A stretch of 64,000 bases of DNA, taken from IMG/VR virus record IMGVR_UViG_3300043427_000994. One strand, written 5' to 3'. Below are positions 9,383 to 40,476 of this stretch, piece after piece. Position numbers and translations under genes: made by a program. Under the pieces are notes generated by a model, which saw nothing but the letters and a program-made list of their open reading frames with translations, searched no databases and was not told where the DNA came from. How positions within the stretch are numbered: the stretch's first letter is position 1; every line of letters starts with the position of its first letter. This DNA comes from a virus (taxonomy: Duplodnaviria; Caudoviricetes).

Positions 9383-12052
9383 TTAAAACTCGAATAACTT
9401 ATTAAAAGTATTCTTTTCTTCAGTTGATTTAATATCCCAACCTAGAACACCTATTAAGTTTTCTAATTTATTGTCGATAATGGTATTTTCCATTTCGGCA
9501 TCATCAAATGGCAATTCCATAAACCATTTGGGTAAACGCAGTTCGTCTACAGGATAAGCCACTGAAGTATAACCTAAAGGATTATTTTTAAGTTTACATA
9601 CAATGACTTTTTGCCCATCGACAATCTGCATTGAATATTTGTCACCGTTCATGCGTCGAAGTGTATTCCAATTAATGCTGGCACGTACATGACCTGGCAT
9701 GTTAGTCTTACCAGCCTTTTCTTCTTTACCTTGATACTCGGTAATATTGTTGGCACGTTTGGGACTACCTTTCTCCCAACCTGGCCGAGATTTAAATTCG
9801 GTTCTAAACGCAGTAATAAAGTCTAAGACCTGCTGTTCTGTTGCGCCTGTTAGAACAAGTTCAAGAATGTCGCTTAGAAAGTCTTGAATAAATGCCGGAG
9901 TATCAGATCTTTTTAGATCAAGACCCATGGCTTTGATTTTTCCAGGCTTTCCGTCTATGTCGGCTCGCTTGCCTTCTTTGTCATAGACTAGCACAGCATA
10001 TCGCTTTTTAGTAATAAACAAGCCTTTAGATCCAACAATCTCACGACCTGCTTTAATAACTTCACCACGACTTGGCGGACAATGAAACGCCTGTTCCATA
10101 AACTTTATAAAGGTACCATTTACTTCATCAGCAATTTGATCATACAATGCGGTAATGTTTTCTTTAGTCCAAGGAATAGCACCAGACTCAATATCTTTTT
10201 TCAGTGTATTGTACGCTGAAAAATAACAAGAGTCAGTATCACCGTAGATTACTGCTTTACCTACGTGGTTGTATTCACCTGTGATGATTTCATTTACCTT
10301 GCCAGCCATATGTTTAGCAATTTGGCGCCCAACAAGTGTTGTTGACTGACCAATACGCTTGTCGAAAAAACGACAGCCAGGATTAAGAATAGCACCATAC
10401 AAACTGTTGAGATTAATCTTTTTAACCAACTGTCTTTTATCCCAGTATTCTTCTTCAATTTTGTTTCCACTGGTAATACACTCCTTTAGTTTGGCCTGCA
10501 TCTCTTTACGTTCAGCATACCAACGCTTTAACAAGCCGGGAATAATACCTTCTTTTTCATAAGTGAAAATAGTACCATTGGCTGAAATCATCCAAGGTTG
10601 ATTACTGTCAAAAATTAGTTTATAGACTTCGGCAGCACTGTGTACAGTATTTTCACCATCTTCCCAGTCAATGGTAATTTCTGTGTCACGACGCTGAGCC
10701 ATTACTGCTTCATATTCTTCAGAACCAAACTTACCTTCCCAACTTGCGGCAAATGATTTCTTTTTTAGATTCATTTGTTCATGGATGTATGCTTGTGTGT
10801 ATACTGGTCGTAGTTGTCCAATGATTGTCTCTGGACCCATGTTCAGCGCACGAATAGCACTTGGATACAGTGAGTTAATGTCTAGAGAACCAATCCAGTC
10901 TTGAATACCTTCTTTGGGATAGGCAACATACGCACCAGCGGCCTGAGTATCTTCGCTGTCGTCTCGTTTAGGACGATTAGGAACTTGGAAGCCTCTACGA
11001 TGTGCTTCATTAATAATAGCCTGTTCTGTAACAGCCACAGCACCCATTGTAGTCTGTAACAATACAGTATTTTCGTGTGCGATTTTATTAGCAAGATCAA
11101 TAAACTTTAGTTTATCGTCTAATTTGTTTAACAACGCAACGTCTTGTCTATTATATTCAATAAACTTTTTAAAGTCTTTGTTATATAATTGGTCTAAGGT
11201 GCCTTCGTAGACAGTTTTAGTTTCGCCAATCTCTGTTTCACCGATAGCATCTAATCGATATGTATGACGTTCTTCATAGGTAAACTTACGATAAAGTTCA
11301 AGACTGTCTAAGTGAACTCGACCGATTAGGTCATAAGTTTGAGCAGTCTTGCCGTACTTTTCATATTCTCTCTTTTTAGGAAATTGCCCCCAAAGACAAA
11401 AACGTTTAGTATCTTCTTTACTCAATACCTGTGTTATACGGTTTACAGTATAAGGAATATCATAACCTTCTGAGTTCCAACCACTTAAAATATCTGCGTC
11501 ATCGATAAGTTCAAGAAACGTTTCTAGCATATCGGACTCGTTGTCAAATATGTAAGTGTTTGGAAATTCTTTAACTGCTTCAGTGGCCTGCGCAGTGGTC
11601 ATGGTCTTAGGAGCCAATGCTAGAGTAATAAGTCTATCTAACCATTTCAGATGTACTGAAATAGCAGTGATTGGCATAAACGCATCTTCAGGTGTGGAGT
11701 AACCTCTTTCCGGATCAAAGTCTACCTCAATGTCGAAGAAGCAGATGTTTAATTTAGGTGCGTCTTGATTAAGATAGTTTTCACTGAGATGAACAAAGAT
11801 AGGATTAATATCTGATTCGTAAAGTTCTTTGCCATTGTTAATAGCCAACTCTTTACGAAAGTCTTTACTGTTCTTACAGACTACTCGAGTAAGTGGATCT
11901 CCAAATATACTTTGAAATTTACCACGGGGATCTGGATAGTAAAATGTATAGCGTACAGGATGTTCTTTATATACCCGTTCGCCTTGGTCGTTTCTTTCAA
12001 CGACTTTGATGATATCATTCTCTCTATCAAAGAGAGCGTCTACATAACTCAT
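9383..12052 (-). CDS. family B DNA polymerase with 3'-5' exonuclease
   Basis: FDIE, WNSEGYD, YN.QD exonuclease motifs; SLDINSLYPS, K..LNSLYG, YGDTDS, KKRY; start MSYVDA after GGAGA RBS. Confidence 0.98.
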   Translation of the reverse strand: MSYVDALFDRENDIIKVVERNDQGERVYKEHPVRYTFYYPDPRGKFQSIFGDPLTRVVCKNSKDFRKELAINNGKELYESDINPIFVHLSENYLNQDAPKLNICFFDIEVDFDPERGYSTPEDAFMPITAISVHLKWLDRLITLALAPKTMTTAQATEAVKEFPNTYIFDNESDMLETFLELIDDADILSGWNSEGYDIPYTVNRITQVLSKEDTKRFCLWGQFPKKREYEKYGKTAQTYDLIGRVHLDSLELYRKFTYEERHTYRLDAIGETEIGETKTVYEGTLDQLYNKDFKKFIEYNRQDVALLNKLDDKLKFIDLANKIAHENTVLLQTTMGAVAVTEQAIINEAHRRGFQVPNRPKRDDSEDTQAAGAYVAYPKEGIQDWIGSLDINSLYPSAIRALNMGPETIIGQLRPVYTQAYIHEQMNLKKKSFAASWEGKFGSEEYEAVMAQRRDTEITIDWEDGENTVHSAAEVYKLIFDSNQPWMISANGTIFTYEKEGIIPGLLKRWYAERKEMQAKLKECITSGNKIEEEYWDKRQLVKKINLNSLYGAILNPGCRFFDKRIGQSTTLVGRQIAKHMAGKVNEIITGEYNHVGKAVIYGDTDSCYFSAYNTLKKDIESGAIPWTKENITALYDQIADEVNGTFIKFMEQAFHCPPSRGEVIKAGREIVGSKGLFITKKRYAVLVYDKEGKRADIDGKPGKIKAMGLDLKRSDTPAFIQDFLSDILELVLTGATEQQVLDFITAFRTEFKSRPGWEKGSPKRANNITEYQGKEEKAGKTNMPGHVRASINWNTLRRMNGDKYSMQIVDGQKVIVCKLKNNPLGYTSVAYPVDELRLPKWFMELPFDDAEMENTIIDNKLENLIGVLGWDIKSTEEKNTFNKLFEF

Positions 12053-12124
12053 TTTTCTCCTTATGCGATTTACGGCTCGCAAACACCAAACGTGCGGCTT
12101 ATGGCCCGCAAACCTTACTGTATA

Positions 12125-15393: not shown

Positions 15394-16314
15394 TCATCTT
15401 AGACCTGCGATGCGAAGCATTTGTTGTAATAAACGATTATCTTTTTCGTGGTACTCGATACTTTCACGTTTTGTACGGCCAGTGCTTGGATCCCACTTTC
15501 CCGCGCCTGGATACTGTGCTCCAGTCATGTTCCAATTTGGGTTCTTAGCTCTCCAAGCATACTCATCTTGAGATGCTGTAGTAATATTAGTAGTTCCACC
15601 TGTTCCAGTTTTTACTTGTCCCGGAACTGTGCTTAATCCAGTGTCAGTGTTAACGCCTGGTTCAGCCTGTGTTGGCTGTCCGTCGGCTGCGGTAGCAGAC
15701 TGGGCATAACCACCTTGACTTTGTTGTGCTGGTGCGTATCCGCTTGCGCCACCTGCTGGTGCTGGAGCAGGTTCAGGTTCGGGAGTTGGTTGTGGAGTCT
15801 CTGCAGGTGGATTTGGTTTGTCTGCTTGCGGCTGAGGAGTGCCAAACGCTGGACTACTACTTTGAGCAGTTACTCCTAACGCATTTTTTTCTGGAGGAGG
15901 AGTAACTGCTGGAGTTGGCGCTGGCGTTGCCGGTGTTGCTTGTTGAGCCTGAGCAGGATTGGTTATTGTAGTAGCAGTTCCTGCTGTCTGAGAACCTTTT
16001 GCAGCATCAACGGCAGGTCCAAATTGTTGTTCAGCGGCTCGTGTCTGTGGTCCCATAATACCGTCTGCTTTAATTTTAGCACCAGCCTTGATTAATTCTT
16101 GCTGTCTTGCTAGTACCTGAGGATCTTTTTTAGCAGCCGGTTTAGCAGCCGGCTTAGCCGCTGTTGTTGGCTGTGGGGTTTTCATAGCAATAGCCTGTTG
16201 AGCCATTGCAGCCGGATCCATACCTGCGCCTTGCGGCCCTGGAGTTGTAACATTTCCTGGTTTTCCAATGTTACCTGTCTGATATTCTTGTATAAGTAAA
16301 TCTCTAATTTTCAT
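15394..16314 (-). CDS. putative internal virion protein, Pro/Ala/Gln-rich, with PG-binding-like segment
   Basis: leader MKIRDLLIQE; QQELIKAG..IKADGIMGPQT; C-terminal MLRIAGL. Confidence 0.65.
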   Translation of the reverse strand: MKIRDLLIQEYQTGNIGKPGNVTTPGPQGAGMDPAAMAQQAIAMKTPQPTTAAKPAAKPAAKKDPQVLARQQELIKAGAKIKADGIMGPQTRAAEQQFGPAVDAAKGSQTAGTATTITNPAQAQQATPATPAPTPAVTPPPEKNALGVTAQSSSPAFGTPQPQADKPNPPAETPQPTPEPEPAPAPAGGASGYAPAQQSQGGYAQSATAADGQPTQAEPGVNTDTGLSTVPGQVKTGTGGTTNITTASQDEYAWRAKNPNWNMTGAQYPGAGKWDPSTGRTKRESIEYHEKDNRLLQQMLRIAGLR

Positions 16315-20352: not shown

Positions 20353-20359
20353 TATTTAT
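20353..20359 (-). promoter_or_regulatory. T4-like late promoter core
   Basis: GATAAATAC followed by AGGAG RBS and start at 20331. Confidence 0.65.
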
Positions 20360-21780
20360 CGTTTAATGCTTCCGCCGGTCAGTAGATTTGCTCCTTTAAC
20401 ATCTAGAGCATTTTTAGCAGTACCGTCTTTATTTTTAAAGGTTTTTCCAGGTTTGTTTTTATATACCGCACCTACTCCTACACTGGCAGCACTAGTAGCG
20501 CCAGCAGTGGCAGTTTCGTCAAACTTTTCAATACCGCGGCTCTGTACCCCACCTTTTTTACGTTTAGCAGCCAATTCTTCTAAACCGTGACGTACTTGTT
20601 CTAAGTTCTGTTCTAAACCCATAAACATTCCGCCTTTGGCTAATTTAGTAATCTGTAACCACATGCCTAAATCATCGCTTTCGGCCATCTGTGCTAGTTC
20701 TTGTAACTGCTTACGTGTTTGTAAAATACGTCCTTTTAGTGTCATAGGATTGGCTTTTTCGTGTCCATGTATCATAGGATCCATAGGATCGTCTGTGGCA
20801 GCAATAGGTGTTTCTTTAACAGATTGTTGAGATTTTTTATCTTTAGGATAAGCAGTATCTCCGTATTTAACTTTATCATTAACTGGACTTTGTCCCTTAA
20901 ATGCCGCTTTAATTTTTTCTAACGTTCCTGAACTATTGTCTTGTTGTTCGTGGGTAAGTTGATCAGCAACAGTTTCTTGCATTTGTCCCATTTGTACGGC
21001 TTGAGCAGCCAATCTAGGAGGAATACCCTGTTTAACTAATTCTGCTTGAACTTGTTGTTCGCTCATACCTTTGTCAAGTAAGGCTTTAGCACGTTTTGCC
21101 AGAGCCATCATATCTATTGCGCCACCTTCTGCTAGAGGATCTAATTGTCTTCCGCTGGCATATTTTTCCCAGTGTAAATGAGGCCCTGTACTAAATCCAG
21201 TACTACCAACATCACCGACACGCTCTCCTTTTTTAACTTCGTCGCCAGGTTTAACTGCTATTCTAGACAAATGCATAAATTTATGTTTTATTCCAGCAGT
21301 TGTAACTAGTTCAACTGTATTACCTGCCGAGCCCAACATTCCGGCAAATGTTATTTTGCCATCGTTAGTGGCAACTACAGGAGTACCTGTAGGTGCGGCA
21401 ATGTCAACTCCAGGATGGGGTATCCTATTACCTTTCGGACCAGTAACAATTCTACCATAGGGGCCGCTAATTCTGCCCTTAGTTGGCATTATTTCGCTGG
21501 AACTAGATGCTGTATCTTTACTAGTAGCGTCTTTGCTAGTAGTGTCTTTGCTAGTAGTGGTAGCATCTTTACCGGGACTATCTTTACTAGGTTCTTTATC
21601 TCCAAGTGAGATTCCGCTGGTATCTGCTGTATATTTTTTAATAGCGGCTCGAGTAAATGGTCCCATAAAACCGTCTGCTCCGGTAGGACCTAAATTATAG
21701 CCTTTAGATATTAAAAATTTCTGTATTTTTTGAGTTGCTAAATTAAATAAACCTTCATTAATTATATCTAGTACTTTCAT
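20356..21780 (-). CDS. peptidoglycan-binding + M23 metallopeptidase protein
   Basis: N-terminal PG-binding (IQKFLISKGY.LGP.GADG.MGP.T); HPGVD, HFMH and STGPHLHWE M23 motifs; leader MKVLDIINE. Confidence 0.85.
   Translation of the reverse strand: MKVLDIINEGLFNLATQKIQKFLISKGYNLGPTGADGFMGPFTRAAIKKYTADTSGISLGDKEPSKDSPGKDATTTSKDTTSKDATSKDTASSSSEIMPTKGRISGPYGRIVTGPKGNRIPHPGVDIAAPTGTPVVATNDGKITFAGMLGSAGNTVELVTTAGIKHKFMHLSRIAVKPGDEVKKGERVGDVGSTGFSTGPHLHWEKYASGRQLDPLAEGGAIDMMALAKRAKALLDKGMSEQQVQAELVKQGIPPRLAAQAVQMGQMQETVADQLTHEQQDNSSGTLEKIKAAFKGQSPVNDKVKYGDTAYPKDKKSQQSVKETPIAATDDPMDPMIHGHEKANPMTLKGRILQTRKQLQELAQMAESDDLGMWLQITKLAKGGMFMGLEQNLEQVRHGLEELAAKRKKGGVQSRGIEKFDETATAGATSAASVGVGAVYKNKPGKTFKNKDGTAKNALDVKGANLLTGGSIKR
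21507..21570. repeat. degenerate 15-bp repeats (SKDTT/SKDAT linker)
   Basis: GTCTTTGCTAGTAGY units. Confidence 0.7.
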
Positions 21781-27522: not shown

Positions 27523-28173
27523 TTAAATTTCACTGTGGGTCACTAATTCTTCAACTTTTACTACTTTATTGCCTAAATAAAGGCGGCAAATGCTGAGAGT
27601 TTTAGCATCTGCTACATAAATGTACCCACCGTATCTATAAGTACTTGCGTTTATTTTTATCTTAGACATCTTTTCAGCCCACTCTCTAAATACTGATTCG
27701 TCATTGAGCGGCTTTAAAGTAACCTTGTATTTGTGGGTATAGTCTTTTCTAATTATTATCTTAGGTCTACTAAGCAGTAATTCTTTAGTGGTTACGTTTT
27801 CTGGTTTAGAAATTTCTCGCAGTGTAATATTGTTAATGGAAGAAATTTTATCTACAATTTCTTCATTGTTAACATATACTCCTAGTATTGAACCTTCTAC
27901 TCTCAGCGTATAATCATCTACTGTAGTTAGTAATTCAATTATTTTACCAGCAACTATAACGTCACCAACAACAGCATATTTTTTGCTCCAAGTAAAGCCA
28001 ACCCTAATCTTTCCTTCCATATCTGAGTCAAACTTATTACTCAACTCAGTCAAGGATCGTTGGGTATCGACTAGTTTTTTTCCTCTAAAAAAGGTTGCTA
28101 CAGGCGTCAGTATTGACACCTTGTACGCATACCTATCAAAGAATAATTTATTAGTTTTCTTCAAGAATGGCAT
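27523..28173 (-). CDS. hypothetical protein
   Basis: 216-aa ORF downstream of clpA. Confidence 0.75.
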   Translation of the reverse strand: MPFLKKTNKLFFDRYAYKVSILTPVATFFRGKKLVDTQRSLTELSNKFDSDMEGKIRVGFTWSKKYAVVGDVIVAGKIIELLTTVDDYTLRVEGSILGVYVNNEEIVDKISSINNITLREISKPENVTTKELLLSRPKIIIRKDYTHKYKVTLKPLNDESVFREWAEKMSKIKINASTYRYGGYIYVADAKTLSICRLYLGNKVVKVEELVTHSEI

Positions 28174-30388
28174 TTTCTTGTGCTTTTACAATTATTTCGT
28201 TATCAGCAACATCGATTGACACCTTGCCGCCATCCTTAAGTCCGCCAAACAACATTAGTTTAGACAGTGGACGTTTAATGTCTTTATCAATAACACGTTG
28301 TAAAGGACGAGCACCCATCTTGGGATCAAAACCTTTTTCAACAAGGTAGTCAATGGCTTCATTACTAAGTGTAATCTTAATGCCTTTGTCTTTGACCTGT
28401 GTTTTTAACTCAACTAAGAACTTACCAACAATTTTAATCATTGTTTCTTTGCTGAGTTTACCAAAGGTAATTATGCCGTCTAAACGATTGCGGAACTCTG
28501 GAGCAAAGAATTTCTTAAGTTCTTTATCTTCGTACCCGCTGTCTTGTGGACCAAAACCAATTGCGTTTCTATCTGCCTCGGCAGCACCCAAGTTTGTAGT
28601 CATAATCAACACAACATTACGAGCATCTGCTTCTTTACCGTTGCTACCAGTAACCTTACCGTTGTCCATTAATTGTAGAAGGATAGTAGAAACATCGGGA
28701 TGTGACTTTTCGACTTCGTCTAGTAATAATACACAATGTGGATGTTCTTGTAGTTTAGTAATCAGTAGGCCAGCATTTTCTTCAAAGCCAACATAACCTG
28801 GAGGCGATCCAATTAACTTACTAACACTGTGTTTCTCTTGATATTCACTCATATCAAAGCGGATCATAGGAATGCCTAATTGTTTAGCCAACTGTTTGGC
28901 AGTTTCTGTTTTACCTGTACCAGTTGGGCCCATGAATACAAAACTACCTACGGGTTTGTTTTCACTCTTTAATCCTGCTTGTGCTACAAGAATCTTATCG
29001 ACAATTTCTGTAATTGCTTCATCTTGTCCGTAAACCTCTCCTTTGAGATTCTTTTCAAGATTAACAAGATTTGAACTTTCTTTTTCTTTGATAGTGTCCT
29101 CTGGAAGATTTACCATCTTACTAAGTTCAAATTGAATACCAGGTACATCAACAATTTTATCTTCTTTAGAATTAATATTAAATCGCGAGCAAGCAACATC
29201 AATAAGGTCAATTGCTTTATCGGGTAATTTTTTATCTGTCATATAACGCACAGACAATTTAACTGCGGCCTCAATGGCTTCGTCGGTGATAGTAGCACCG
29301 TGATGTTTTTCGTAATATTTTTTAACACCTTTGAGAATATCTACAGCCATTTCTGGAGTAGGCTCATCAACAGTAACACGTTGGAATCGGCGCATTAGGG
29401 CACGATCCTTTTCGAAGTACTTGCGATATTCTTCCCATGTTGTACTGGCAACTACTTTAATATTGCCCTTGCTTAGAGCAGGCTTCATCATGTTAGCAAG
29501 GTCGTTGCTATTTTGACTGCCACCAGCACCCGCACCGTTGATCATGTGTGCTTCGTCAATAAACAATACAGTCTTGCCTCTGCTTTGTAAGGCTTTAAGA
29601 ACAAGTTTAAATCTTTCTTCAAAGTCTCCGCGATACTTACTACCAGCCAACATACTGCTGATATCAAGATTAAAAACAGTATATTCTTTTAAGAAATTTG
29701 GAACATGGTCGTGAATAATGTTATAGGCCAAACCTTCTGCGATGGCAGTTTTACCAACTCCGGGATCGCCTACAAGCAGAATGTTGTTTTTATTTCTACG
29801 TCCTAGTCCTAGCGCAATTTGCTCTAATTCTTCAACTCGTCCAATTACTGGATCAATCTTATGCTTCTTGACCTGTTCATTAAGGTTGGTAGTAAATGAT
29901 TTTAAAGCCTTTTCACTTTGAGCATCAGTGACCTGTTCTTCTTCCTCGTCGATCTCGCTGTTGACAAAGTCAGCAAACTTTTCACGATCAACACCACCTT
30001 TGGTAATATAGTAAACAGCAAAACTGCGCTTTTCACTCAAGGCACTTAGGAATACGTCTACAAGTTCGATACTTTGACGGCCACTGAACAATACCTGTGT
30101 AAACGCACGATTAAGTACACGCTCAACTGTTTGTGTTTTTTTAGGTTTAAATCCTTTTGGAATAGGATCAACTTTAATTTCGTCTAGTTTATTTTTGAGA
30201 TAGTGTTCTAAATTTGTTTTGATATAGTCACAGTCTGCTCCATAGTTAGATAGCAGATCAAAAAACTTTTCTTCGCAAAGCATAGCGAATACGAGATGTT
30301 CTAAAGTTACATACTCGTGACCCAGTTTCTTACAATCTGAAACTGCTTTTTCAAAAACTATTTGTAATTGATCACTTGGTTCTACCAT
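28151..30388 (-). CDS. clpA: ATP-dependent Clp protease ATPase subunit ClpA
   Basis: N-domain, two AAA+ modules (GDPGVGKT/FIDEAH; GPTGTGKT/LLDEVEK), IGF ClpP-docking loop, no ClpB middle domain. Confidence 0.95.
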   Translation of the reverse strand: MVEPSDQLQIVFEKAVSDCKKLGHEYVTLEHLVFAMLCEEKFFDLLSNYGADCDYIKTNLEHYLKNKLDEIKVDPIPKGFKPKKTQTVERVLNRAFTQVLFSGRQSIELVDVFLSALSEKRSFAVYYITKGGVDREKFADFVNSEIDEEEEQVTDAQSEKALKSFTTNLNEQVKKHKIDPVIGRVEELEQIALGLGRRNKNNILLVGDPGVGKTAIAEGLAYNIIHDHVPNFLKEYTVFNLDISSMLAGSKYRGDFEERFKLVLKALQSRGKTVLFIDEAHMINGAGAGGSQNSNDLANMMKPALSKGNIKVVASTTWEEYRKYFEKDRALMRRFQRVTVDEPTPEMAVDILKGVKKYYEKHHGATITDEAIEAAVKLSVRYMTDKKLPDKAIDLIDVACSRFNINSKEDKIVDVPGIQFELSKMVNLPEDTIKEKESSNLVNLEKNLKGEVYGQDEAITEIVDKILVAQAGLKSENKPVGSFVFMGPTGTGKTETAKQLAKQLGIPMIRFDMSEYQEKHSVSKLIGSPPGYVGFEENAGLLITKLQEHPHCVLLLDEVEKSHPDVSTILLQLMDNGKVTGSNGKEADARNVVLIMTTNLGAAEADRNAIGFGPQDSGYEDKELKKFFAPEFRNRLDGIITFGKLSKETMIKIVGKFLVELKTQVKDKGIKITLSNEAIDYLVEKGFDPKMGARPLQRVIDKDIKRPLSKLMLFGGLKDGGKVSIDVADNEIIVKAQENAILEEN

Positions 30389-35330: not shown

Positions 35331-36065
35331 ATGACGACAAAACGAGCCAAAAAGCGTTTTCATAACGAAAATGTTATTGAGTTTACACAGTTCAATCACA
35401 CAGTCCCACAAAACCTTCCACAGAAAAAACAGCGAGTACACGTAGTCCCTCGCAACAGAAACCAAGAAGAATATTTACTTAAATTAATTGATCCAGCGAA
35501 AAACATAGTTTTCGCTCTGGGTCCCGCTGGCACGGGCAAAACATTAATAGCGTGTCAAGTCGGTATTAAACTTTTCAAAGAAAAGTTGGTAGATAAGATC
35601 GTGGTAACTCGCCCAGCAGTTTCTGTAGATGAAGAGCACGGATTTCTTCCAGGTACCCTAGAGCAAAAAATGGCTCCATGGACTAGACCAATATTTGATG
35701 TCTTATCCGAGTACTATTACGCCAGGGATATTGAGAATATGATTCGTGAGGGTGTAATTGAAATTAGTCCGTTAGCATTTATGAGAGGTCGAACATTTAA
35801 GAACGCATACATTATTGCTGATGAAATGCAAAATGCTACGCAGAATCAAATGAAAATGCTACTAACGCGACTAGGTGAAGGCTCTAAAATGGTCGTAACA
35901 GGAGATTTAAGGCAAGCCGATAGATTGGAGGATAACGGCTTGATCGACTTCTGCCAGAGACTACAAGACAAAAATTTAGAACATTTAGATCTTGTTCAGT
36001 TCGGTATGAAAGACATCGAACGTCACGAGGCAGTGAAGGAGGTATTATCGATATACGGTGATTAG
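35331..36065 (+). CDS. phoH: PhoH family ATPase
   Basis: GPAGTGKT, TRPAV, GFLPG, AFMRGRT, ADEMQN, TRLG, GD..Q.D. Confidence 0.96.
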   Translation: MTTKRAKKRFHNENVIEFTQFNHTVPQNLPQKKQRVHVVPRNRNQEEYLLKLIDPAKNIVFALGPAGTGKTLIACQVGIKLFKEKLVDKIVVTRPAVSVDEEHGFLPGTLEQKMAPWTRPIFDVLSEYYYARDIENMIREGVIEISPLAFMRGRTFKNAYIIADEMQNATQNQMKMLLTRLGEGSKMVVTGDLRQADRLEDNGLIDFCQRLQDKNLEHLDLVQFGMKDIERHEAVKEVLSIYGD

Positions 36066-36601: not shown

Positions 36602-36921
36602 TCTTCTAGCATGGCTCTTTTGTTAGGTACATCTTTCCATGATTCGGCACTGACCATTGCTTGTTTTTTAACGGTAATAACTGGCCAATTCTTACTCAAC
36701 CGAGCGTTGAGGTCAATCCACTCTTGTAAATTTGGATAATCATCATCGTCCGCTACAATAGCATTTACTGGACAGGCATCGACACAGACATGACAGTCAA
36801 TACATTCGTCGGGATTAATTGCTAAGAAATTTGGACCTTCATGGAACGCATCAACTGGACATACCTCTACACAGTCAGTATGCTTACATCTAATACAATT
36901 TTCTGTGACAACGTAGGTCAT
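36598..36921 (-). CDS. fdxA: FdxA-type (7Fe/8Fe) ferredoxin
   Basis: CIRCKHTDCVEVCPVD.F.EG.N.L.INPDECIDC..C...CP. Confidence 0.93.
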   Translation of the reverse strand: MTYVVTENCIRCKHTDCVEVCPVDAFHEGPNFLAINPDECIDCHVCVDACPVNAIVADDDDYPNLQEWIDLNARLSKNWPVITVKKQAMVSAESWKDVPNKRAMLEE

Positions 36922-37844
36922 TATTGTAATCTTGACAATCTAATCAATGTAGCGGCTAAGTTAATTTCGGCATCTGCTACAGAAATGTGATCAACTAAAC
37001 CTTGTTTAATGATAAGAACAGCATTGTCTTGTAATTCTTCTGTGCCACCAAATAAATTAATATTGTCATACATCCAACGATAGATATCTTCCATTTCCTC
37101 TGGGCGAGCTTGGCTACACAATAATTTACGTGCCTCTCCTATTTTTCCCTTCTTGAACAGTTCTACCATCTCAATTCTATAATCAGTACTAGCATCGTTG
37201 ACTTCTGGAGCATGAAGTTTTCCATCTAAACTGTTCATTTGAATGTTATTAATACACTTACGCAGATCTGGATATGTACCTTTGACATAGGTATCTAAAG
37301 TATCTAAGTCAAATTCAACATTTTCCTCTACAAGAATAGTTGCCACACGGGCAGTAAACTCTGTTAGATCAGTTTTTTCAATATGTACCTGTTGGCAACG
37401 ACTGTGTAGTGCTGGAATAATTCTATTAGGATAGTTACAAGTAAGAATAAATCTTACGCTGTGACTGTATTCTTCCATAAGATTACGCAGTGCTGGCTGT
37501 ACTGACTGCGGATTCAAATAATCAGCCTCATCTAAGATAACAACTTTAAATTCGCCAAACGGCATAGTTTGACAAAATCCTGTTAGTTTATCGTTAAGCC
37601 ATTCAATCTTACGACCTTCTTTACTAGCGTTGGCTAATAAAACGTCAGTATCTTGAACATCTAACTCGTTAACTAAAATTTTTGCCAGAGTAGTTTTACC
37701 AACACCTGCGTTACCACTGAACAGTAGATGTGGAATACTACCGTCTTTGACCCACTGGTCAATTTGACTTTTTTGACGTTCGTCTTTAAACACATAACCA
37801 TCCAGTGTGCTAGGACGATACTTTTCTACCCATAATTCTTTCAT
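36921..37844 (-). CDS. clamp loader AAA+ subunit (RFC/T4 gp44-like)
   Basis: WVEKYRP, GNAGVGKT, LDEAD, LHSRC. Confidence 0.95.
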   Translation of the reverse strand: MKELWVEKYRPSTLDGYVFKDERQKSQIDQWVKDGSIPHLLFSGNAGVGKTTLAKILVNELDVQDTDVLLANASKEGRKIEWLNDKLTGFCQTMPFGEFKVVILDEADYLNPQSVQPALRNLMEEYSHSVRFILTCNYPNRIIPALHSRCQQVHIEKTDLTEFTARVATILVEENVEFDLDTLDTYVKGTYPDLRKCINNIQMNSLDGKLHAPEVNDASTDYRIEMVELFKKGKIGEARKLLCSQARPEEMEDIYRWMYDNINLFGGTEELQDNAVLIIKQGLVDHISVADAEINLAATLIRLSRLQ

Positions 37845-39489: not shown

Positions 39490-39705
39490 TTATTTTTTAT
39501 TTTCAGATTGCTCGTAAAAGTCTTTAAGAATATCTTCTCTTTTACGAACGATTTTACCACCTGCTCCTAATTGGTCACCGCGAGCATTTACACGAGCGTT
39601 TCCGACAGCAGGTGTAAGTTCGTTGCGTTGACGAAGCAGATCCATGTCAATGGTTTTACCATTGGCAGTTCTATATACTTTTTTTGGTGTTGGTTTTTGT
39701 GGCAT
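39490..39705 (-). CDS. hypothetical protein
   Basis: AVGNARVNARGD.LG.GG motif; RBS GGAGG; ATAAGTA late-like core upstream (39730-39736). Confidence 0.75.
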   Translation of the reverse strand: MPQKPTPKKVYRTANGKTIDMDLLRQRNELTPAVGNARVNARGDQLGAGGKIVRKREDILKDFYEQSENKK

Positions 39706-39732: not shown

Positions 39733-40233
39733 TTATCTCAAAAATTCTCGCCAGTCTAGATTATATTTTATGCTGTCTATTCGATGTACTCCTATTAAGA
39801 AAAGTACATAACTGGCCACACTAGATCCTCTGCCCACACCCCAAATAACTTGATTTTTCTTACAAGTGTCAACAAAGTATTTTAACCAGCGTAACAGATC
39901 TAGCATATTTCTATCTCTAAATTCTTGGAGTTCTTCAATAAGTCGCTGGTAGTTTTCTTTTGGACAAACATTGACTAAAAAGCCTTCTATGTCCATATTT
40001 TGATACTCGTCGGGCATGAACCAAGTTTTCTGTAAAGACTGATCAAAGTCTTCAATAGAGATGTCTAACTCTTGGTAAATTTTAAGTGGAGTGTTAGATA
40101 CGGAATTGTATTTTTGAATATGACTGTCGTCATCGACTAAAATATTTTGAAGAATATCCGATTTACCTTTGTAAATAATTTCTACAATTTCATCGGAAGA
40201 GTATACAGGAATACCAAATTTATCTAGTCTCAT
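39733..40233 (-). CDS. stand-alone DnaE (Pol III alpha)-like fragment
   Basis: WGVGRGSSVASYVLFLIGVHRIDSIKYNL...FL matches DnaE GxGRGSxxxS..Y.LGI..IDP....L.FERF; stops before the DxD catalytic motif. Confidence 0.75.
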   Translation of the reverse strand: MRLDKFGIPVYSSDEIVEIIYKGKSDILQNILVDDDSHIQKYNSVSNTPLKIYQELDISIEDFDQSLQKTWFMPDEYQNMDIEGFLVNVCPKENYQRLIEELQEFRDRNMLDLLRWLKYFVDTCKKNQVIWGVGRGSSVASYVLFLIGVHRIDSIKYNLDWREFLR

Positions 40234-40239
40234 AGGACT

Positions 40240-40268
40240 ATTTTAATTGACATTAATTAAATTGTCAA
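40240..40268 (-). promoter_or_regulatory. sigma70-type promoter, predicted leaderless transcript
   Basis: TTGACA-17 nt-TAAAAT, 6 nt before ATG at 40233; TTGACA-N10-TGTCAA dyad. Confidence 0.7.
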
Positions 40269-40476
40269 GATCTGTATCGCGTTTTTGACTAATTTCTTCC
40301 CACATTTTAGATCGACGTACTGCCAATTCTTCTTTATATGACTCTAACATTACCAGCACTTGGTGTTGAAGTGCTGGATTTCTAGCCGCTTGGAAATATT
40401 TTCTTGAAAGTTCTTGTATCTTAGTTTCAAGTTCAGAGTCTTTGAGACTCTTAGTATTTTCCATTAATGGATGCAT
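40243..40476 (-). CDS. hypothetical protein
   Basis: 77-aa helical ORF. Confidence 0.7.
   Translation of the reverse strand: MHPLMENTKSLKDSELETKIQELSRKYFQAARNPALQHQVLVMLESYKEELAVRRSKMWEEISQKRDTDLDNLINVN

Follow-up and report, generated by a model that had tools for sequence, protein, structure and literature searches.

What is a stand-alone fragment of DnaE, ending just short of the catalytic aspartates, doing in a phage that encodes a family B DNA polymerase (PolB) of its own? The ORF that raises this question lies in a 64,000-nucleotide stretch of DNA from an uncultured phage (the window), and the initial annotation had offered three readings of it: a repurposed domain that senses nucleotides or alarmones, a decoy of the host's Pol III, or one half of a split enzyme. 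The evidence points with good confidence to the last of these, in the form of an N-terminal nucleotide-binding subunit of a two-chain, minimal nucleotidyltransferase of family C (DnaE / Pol III alpha type). The ORF is referred to below as the N-half, and the separately encoded protein that would complete it as the partner.

The ORF and its relation to DnaE

What had been reported of the ORF from its letters held up: 166 amino acids with a clean stop, a GRGS segment (residues 134-137), no continuation, and a PolB gene in the same genome. It is encoded on the minus strand, which had not been stated before (Table 1). The next ORF is an unrelated 71-aa gene, and no frame encodes the catalytic part.

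In a Pfam search the N-half matched PF07733 (DNA_pol3_alpha) with an E-value of 1.5e-10 and a score of 41.5 bits (cut-off 23.9), and no other Pfam domain was found in it. This match covered residues 88-165, which correspond to positions 17-94 of the 260 in the profile. The whole of the N-half was covered by PHROG 11127 (E 1.8e-40), a family of 171 positions labeled 'DNA polymerase'.

Alignment to solved Pol III alpha placed the GRGS segment at R362-G363-S364 of the E. coli enzyme and R424-G425-S426 of the Thermus enzyme. The C-terminus, WREFLR166, aligned with FERFL454 of Thermus and with residue 392/393 of E. coli, and the stop falls about 6 residues short of the position of the DnaE PDxDxD motif; both alignments agree with the earlier statement that the ORF ends before the catalytic aspartates. 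The arginine of FERFL (Thermus R452), presumably a triphosphate contact, aligned with E163 of the N-half, and the adjoining R162 varied between R and Q.

Table 1. Location of the N-half, its parts and neighboring features in the window
Feature	Position	Strand	Details
N-half CDS (N-terminal nucleotide-binding unit)	39733..40233	minus	166 aa, ATG start, TAA stop included
GRGS motif (G134 R135 G136 S137)	39823..39834	minus	codons GGC AGA GGA TCT; within block WGVGRGSSV
Predicted first half of DnaE palm, residues 58-166	39736..40062	minus	model aligned with residues 271-393 of E. coli Pol III alpha
Sigma70-type promoter-like site	40240..40268	minus	TTGACA (40268-40263), 17-nt spacer, TAAAAT (40245-40240)
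Conserved downstream neighbor	39490..39705	minus	71 aa, basic, own AGGAGG, phrog_14844
Family B polymerase (PolB)	9383-12082	minus	PF00136, E 3.7e-35, and exonuclease domain
Clamp-loader ORF	36921-37844		AAA / DNA_pol3_delta2 matches, obtained with an identical copy from a nearly identical contig
ClpA/ClpB-type double AAA+ ATPase	28151-30388	minus	745 aa
M23 peptidase-domain protein	20356-21780	minus	474 aa
PhoH	35331-36065	plus	

Membership in a described family of split polymerases

The N-half belongs to the split minimal Pol III alpha family described in 2021, from comparative genomics and sequence analysis, in the group 2.2 jumbo phages (Iyer, Anantharaman, Krishnan, Burroughs and Aravind 2021, Viruses 13:63, section 3.4.1; PMC7824862), here in an uncultured giant T4-like phage. 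Other members of the family, all PHROG 11127, are EST35_0288 of PA5oct, gp316 of Atu_ph07 and CBB_328. A 'truncated' Pol III alpha of 172 aa was noted in the paper on phage CBB (PMC5259590), and gp316 in the paper on Atu_ph07 (PMC6102473).

The features of the group 2.2 N-terminal unit were found in the N-half: PF07733, PHROG 11127, the predicted structure and GRGS, in a stand-alone protein that ends before the Mg-binding aspartates. Its length and end point are also those of the group. Those of a T4-like group 2 genome were found as well, with a family B polymerase and an RFC-type clamp loader, and the identical N-half protein was present on a contig of 381,653 bp. As in the group 2.2 phages, an N-half, a small conserved gene, a GroES-like gene, a clamp loader and PhoH occur together in a genome with a T4-type PolB. 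This uncultured phage differs from them in being distant at the DNA level (no megablast match), and in that a partner is known in the relatives but absent from its 64-kb window. The promoter and the 71-aa neighbor described below are not mentioned in the 2021 account (PMC7824862).

The catalytic half in relatives

In relatives a separate gene supplies the missing PDxDxD and KxDxL motifs. A faint match to PF17657 in Atu_ph07 (E 0.007) led to gp074, a 191-aa ORF, 182 kb from the N-half gene gp316, whose product starts MKNIPDIDIDF and carries the motifs KFDFLN, IRPAKR and FKKSHS. Searches of PA5oct with PF07733 and PF17657 did not detect the partner. Proteins of the partner family are about 190 aa long, start (M)PDIDIDF (many members begin exactly at MPDIDIDF) and retain KxDxL, IRPAK and FKKxHA. 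Their invariant residues are D3, D5, D7, H34, G37, K66, D68, R135, P136, K138, F164, K165 and H168. In a metagenome protein search the family was larger than the 8,000 candidates that could be scored, and it carries no precomputed Pfam domain.

Both halves were found in the same isolate jumbo phages, including PA5oct, Atu_ph07 and the Rak2-like phages. With tblastn, the N-half was found in 107 phage records and the partner in 96; 13 of the 107 were Bacillus phages, which we take to be matches to full-length DnaE/PolC. Tallies by genus were nearly identical for the N-half and the partner, with, for example, 34/34 in Escherichia phages, 11/11 in Pseudomonas, 8/8 in Salmonella, 8/8 in Erwinia, 4/4 in Xanthomonas and 4/4 in Yersinia. 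The isolate with the best match to the N-half was PA5oct (42% identity; Atu_ph07, 33%), and RsoM2USA, SCTP-2 and Rak2-like phages were other isolates with an N-half. The genes that follow the partner are conserved in five isolates, in the order small reverse gene, structural protein gene, primase gene and DnaB-type helicase gene.

The N-half was looked for in five long IMG/VR genomes with a partner gene and was present in all three of the complete genomes and in one of the two incomplete ones. In the closest of these (364.5 kb, complete), the N-half was 60% identical to that of the window and the partner was about 180 kb away. Spacing between the two genes ranged from 5 to about 180 kb in relatives, often with other genes between them. 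No partner was found on five IMG/VR contigs with an N-half, but at 23-44% completeness these contigs are too partial for the absence to carry weight.

Within the window itself, the partner was not found by a motif scan, by phmmer with the Atu_ph07 partner, or by two profile searches with filters off. The sole weak match, 39 residues without any of the motifs in an out-of-frame ORF at 15636-15869 (E 0.0016), was rejected as spurious. A metagenome scan yielded 54 partner loci, none of them from this phage, and none of the best 120 proteins matching a relative's partner came from the 381,653-bp contig. The absence from the window fits the arrangement in PA5oct, where the partner (EST35_0220) is 43.6 kb upstream of the N-half, a distance that would fall past the end of the window. 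Judging from its relatives, this phage should have the partner gene outside the window.

Two other features of the partner genes were observed. Partners of the clade nearest this phage (the locus L143:6004-6582 and its relatives) had a conserved tail, ICExxSY(E/G)(F/Y)S, that was absent in other clades; it may serve for docking, perhaps to the sliding clamp. Two partner-gene matches on metagenomic or IMG/VR contigs contained in-frame stops, two in L221:101-694 and one in L156:6001-6597, and these may be interrupted or recoded copies.

Predicted structures of the two chains and their complex

The AF2 model of the N-half had a mean pLDDT of 89. Residues 58-166 share the fold and the GS motif of the first half of the DnaE/PolC palm (E. 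coli Pol III alpha 2hnh; Thermus 2hpi and 3e0d; M. tuberculosis DnaE1 5lew). In VIA-align comparisons this segment aligned to C-family polymerases with Z-scores of 8-10 and an rmsd of 2.7-3.5 A over 94-105 residues, which included residues 270/271-393 of E. coli alpha (Z 8.1-8.9, 2.8-3.5 A, 95-100 residues), 304-413 of M. tuberculosis DnaE1 (Z 9.8) and 816-964 of PolC (Z 9.9). Only C-family polymerases were among the matches listed for the N-half. The top nine Foldseek matches were all Pol III alpha, with weak E-values (0.03 and above).

Unlike canonical single-chain DnaE/PolC, the N-half is one tenth of the size and has no PHP domain, catalytic aspartates, thumb, fingers, clamp-binding motif or OB domain. 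Solved DnaE structures have nothing equivalent to residues 1-57, which were modeled as a strand and helices with a pLDDT of about 90. Residues 1, 3, 6-9, 24, 27 and 30-31 were in predicted contacts with the partner, and the segment may act as a clasp peculiar to the phages, standing in for a covalent link between the halves.

The partner of the 364.5-kb relative was modeled with a pLDDT of 90. Its residues 1-190 aligned to approximately 400-784 of E. coli alpha, 461-841 of the Thermus enzyme and 419-854 of DnaE1 (Z 8.7-9.5, 184-188 residues). Above Z 4 only C-family polymerases were matched, and the next unrelated chain had a Z-score of 3.7. Compared with M. tuberculosis DnaE1 at the level of sequence profiles, the partner matched four collinear motifs from residue 413, and the N-half profile ended at 406. 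The break therefore comes after the GS loop and before the DxD strand of the Pol-beta-like palm, with about 6 residues missing.

A complex was predicted from the N-half of the window and, as a stand-in, the partner of the 364.5-kb relative, with alignments that we built. This pair scored 0.91, compared with 0.01 for the highest of three controls; the pass mark is reached by 58 of 80 solved complexes and by 2 of 110 mismatched pairs. Runs agreed in at least 97% of contacts, the partner had a pLDDT of at least 91, and 150 contacts were predicted. The surest of these were between W131/G132 and partner residues 6-8, and between W71/F72 and partner residues 18-20 and 40-41. The pass may reflect memory of solved single-chain DnaE structures, and the prediction supports binding of the two chains rather than showing it.

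A proposed two-chain enzyme and its likely function

The suggestion that the ORF is one half of a split enzyme is supported by the separate gene of the relatives, by the co-occurrence of the two genes and by the predicted joint palm. In the proposed enzyme, the N-half would contribute the first strand-helix element of the Pol-beta-like palm and the GS loop, which would hold the triphosphate of the incoming nucleotide. The partner, encoded by the distant gene, would contribute the three catalytic aspartates and a cut-down fingers region. The chains would assemble non-covalently, with neither an intein nor an intron involved, and the WGVG strand of the N-half would pair with the DIDID strand of the partner to make one active site. 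Such an enzyme would operate beside a normal T4-type PolB replisome, and it would have no PHP domain, thumb bulk, clamp-binding part or OB domain.

We infer that the two chains bind and that their product is a DNA polymerase. Because the PHP domain, thumb bulk, clamp-binding part and OB domain are missing and a PolB replisome is present, its most likely role is not that of main replicase but that of an accessory polymerase of low processivity, used in repair, gap filling or primer extension. No laboratory test of the split enzyme was found in the literature searched.

An alternative is that the chains do assemble, but into a nucleotidyltransferase of the Pol-beta fold with a different activity, for example terminal transfer, primer tailing or synthesis of a nucleotide signal. 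This would fit the compression of about 385 residues of E. coli alpha into the 190 of the partner, the loss of most of the fingers along with the thumb, clamp-binding motif and OB domain, and the presence of a complete PolB in the phage. However, the partner retains the fingers motifs IRPAK and FKKxHAxAY, which belong to the region of DnaE that handles template and dNTP; its gene adjoins primase and helicase genes in five isolate phages; and the pair is interpreted as a polymerase by Iyer et al. (PMC7824862). A function other than that of a polymerase is therefore considered unlikely. The absence of the thumb, clamp-binding and OB parts does make template copying of DNA by the putative complex less certain.

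Promoter and genomic context of the N-half

A consensus scan identified a sigma70-type promoter-like site immediately upstream of the N-half, with 11 of 12 consensus positions matched and a -10 element that ends 6 nt before the ATG. Both elements overlap the upstream 77-aa gene (40243-40476): its TAA stop falls within the -10 element, and the -35 element lies in its Leu-Asp codons. A site of the form cTTGACA-N17-TAAAAT/TAATAT/TAAACT was found at the same place in about 30 relatives whose proteins were 45-100% identical, and the Leu-Asp codons at the -35 position were always CTT GAC. One subclade had the -10 element about 12 nt from the ATG. No Shine-Dalgarno sequence was found upstream of the ATG of the N-half.

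The ORF had been said to have its own promoter and to be leaderless, and the conserved TTGACA-17-TAAAAT site favors this reading, since its -10 element ends so close to the ATG. The site predicts a leaderless or near-leaderless early transcript that would start a block containing the N-half, GroES, MazG and clamp-loader genes, after a run of structural genes. Partner genes of relatives had no such promoter and appear to be operon-coupled, so the two halves are probably transcribed separately.

Such an arrangement could make the split itself a control device. The N-half would be expressed from its own host-sigma70, leaderless-type promoter and the partner from the primase-helicase operon, and their assembly would time or limit a primase-coupled, primer-extending polymerase that hands over to PolB, as DnaE does to PolC in B. 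subtilis. This idea is considered unlikely.

The GroES-like gene and MazG are also present in the window, and the order of these two, PolB, the clamp loader and PhoH is shared with PA5oct and Atu_ph07. The ClpA/ClpB-type ATPase, the M23 protein and PhoH flank the replication block; PhoH and a ClpA-like gene also occur in the corresponding region of PA5oct.

Directly downstream of the N-half, the basic 71-aa gene was homologous to EST35_0289 of PA5oct (E 4e-14) and gp315 of Atu_ph07 (E 3e-7), both of which are directly downstream of the N-halves of their own genomes. Proteins of this family share the motif VDMD.L..NE..AVGN..VNA[RK]GD.LG.GG. From its position and conservation the neighbor may be an accessory factor of the N-half, and under the control-device idea it could be a third subunit of the split polymerase.

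Conservation of the N-half and what it argues against

The separate gene, the conserved promoter of its own, the probable transcription apart from the partner and the first 57 residues, with no counterpart in DnaE, could also be expected of a protein that works alone, as a sensor of nucleotides or alarmones or as a decoy of host Pol III. In an alignment of 41 homologues (40-81% identity to the protein of the window), the invariant residues were W131, G132, G134-V139, S141, L144, H150, S154, Y157, L159 and L165, which fall in the predicted interface and the GS loop. Neither a sensor nor a decoy is supported by this distribution or by the tight co-occurrence of the two genes in isolates and in complete IMG/VR genomes: no complete genome tested had an N-half without a partner. 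Furthermore, a palm cut in half would leave a strand edge and an extensive hydrophobic surface uncovered, where the 150 contacts are predicted, and the N-half has no clamp- or tau-binding part, which a decoy would need. A role for the N-half on its own is thus quite improbable, distinctly more so than a non-polymerase activity of the pair.

The family of the N-half is very large and found only in viruses. At least 7,996 significant homologues, 91-291 aa long, were identified among 8,000 candidates scored in a protein search. Nearly all were 164-172 aa long, and more than 7,900 were stand-alone copies of 160-190 aa. Four longer proteins (>291 aa) were found, which are weak evidence regarding one-piece forms; the two that were inspected had N-terminal extensions and the same end point, and were unfused to a catalytic part.

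The end point was the same throughout. The approximately 90 loci inspected came from IMG/VR, assemblies and phage records, and in every one of them the stop-to-stop ORF ended at the residue aligned with the last residue of the N-half. The 41 aligned homologues ended uniformly in ...EFLR and shared the WGVGRGSSV block, with GRGS invariant. The comparison of dN/dS across relatives that had been proposed as a check indicated purifying selection: dN/dS was 0.057 against the 99%-identical nearest relative (dS 0.087), and the median over 67 pairs with dS <2 was 0.25, an overestimate, as dS was near saturation.

The N-half covers only about one tenth of DnaE and has no catalytic residues, as a decaying remnant of a captured host dnaE might, but at the level of sequence analysis this reading is rejected, and is given almost no weight, on the basis of the dN/dS values of 0.057-0.25 and the identical end point in about 90 copies, along with the thousands of homologues of similar length, the conserved promoter and the confidently predicted fold.

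Covalent rejoining of the halves, by a split intein, RNA splicing or recoding, is just as hard to credit: split inteins in dnaE are a textbook case, but here the N-half runs to the equivalent of DnaE1 residue 406 and the partner resumes at 413 with Met-Pro-Asp, there is no surplus sequence on either side to form an intein, no Cys, Ser or Thr is at the +1 position (residue 2 of the partner is Pro), and every homologue ends at the same residue with a stop, in genes 5 to about 180 kb apart. None of the marks of a split-intein DnaE (an N-intein, a C-intein and a nucleophilic +1 residue) was found in the N-half or the partner. The search for complementary DnaE pieces or inteins that the initial annotation had called for therefore gave a divided answer, with a complementary piece in relatives, none in the 64-kb window, and no room for an intein in either half. 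The alternative that it named as a refutation, in which the rest of dnaE lies elsewhere as a trans-spliced gene, was right about the location, in relatives, but not about the splicing.

Comparison with known two-chain polymerases

The split minimal enzyme proposed here has two parallels of different kinds. Cyanobacteria such as Synechocystis and Nostoc encode DnaE-n and DnaE-c in two distant genes, with intein halves at the break, and the products are ligated to full-length DnaE. The phage pair would likewise be a family-C polymerase derived from two distant genes, but it has no intein, is miniaturized, and is broken inside the predicted active site, with the GS loop on one chain and the DxD strand on the other.

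Some T4-like Aeromonas phages have a two-gene PolB, gp43A and gp43B, in which the chains are non-covalent and form the main replicase. These phages provide a precedent for a two-chain DNA polymerase in the T4-like group; theirs is a family B main replicase, whereas the enzyme proposed here would be an extra one, of family C.

Implications

The locus can now be annotated as half of a split enzyme and not as a decoy, a sensor or a pseudogene. A second, smaller result is the well-conserved promoter, with its predicted leaderless or near-leaderless early transcript. If the two chains do build a working family-C active site, no smaller enzyme of that class would be known, and the pair would be a natural example of an active site shared by two polypeptides. 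Why giant phages of the T4 type retain a second, bacterial-type polymerase in addition to PolB would then need explaining.
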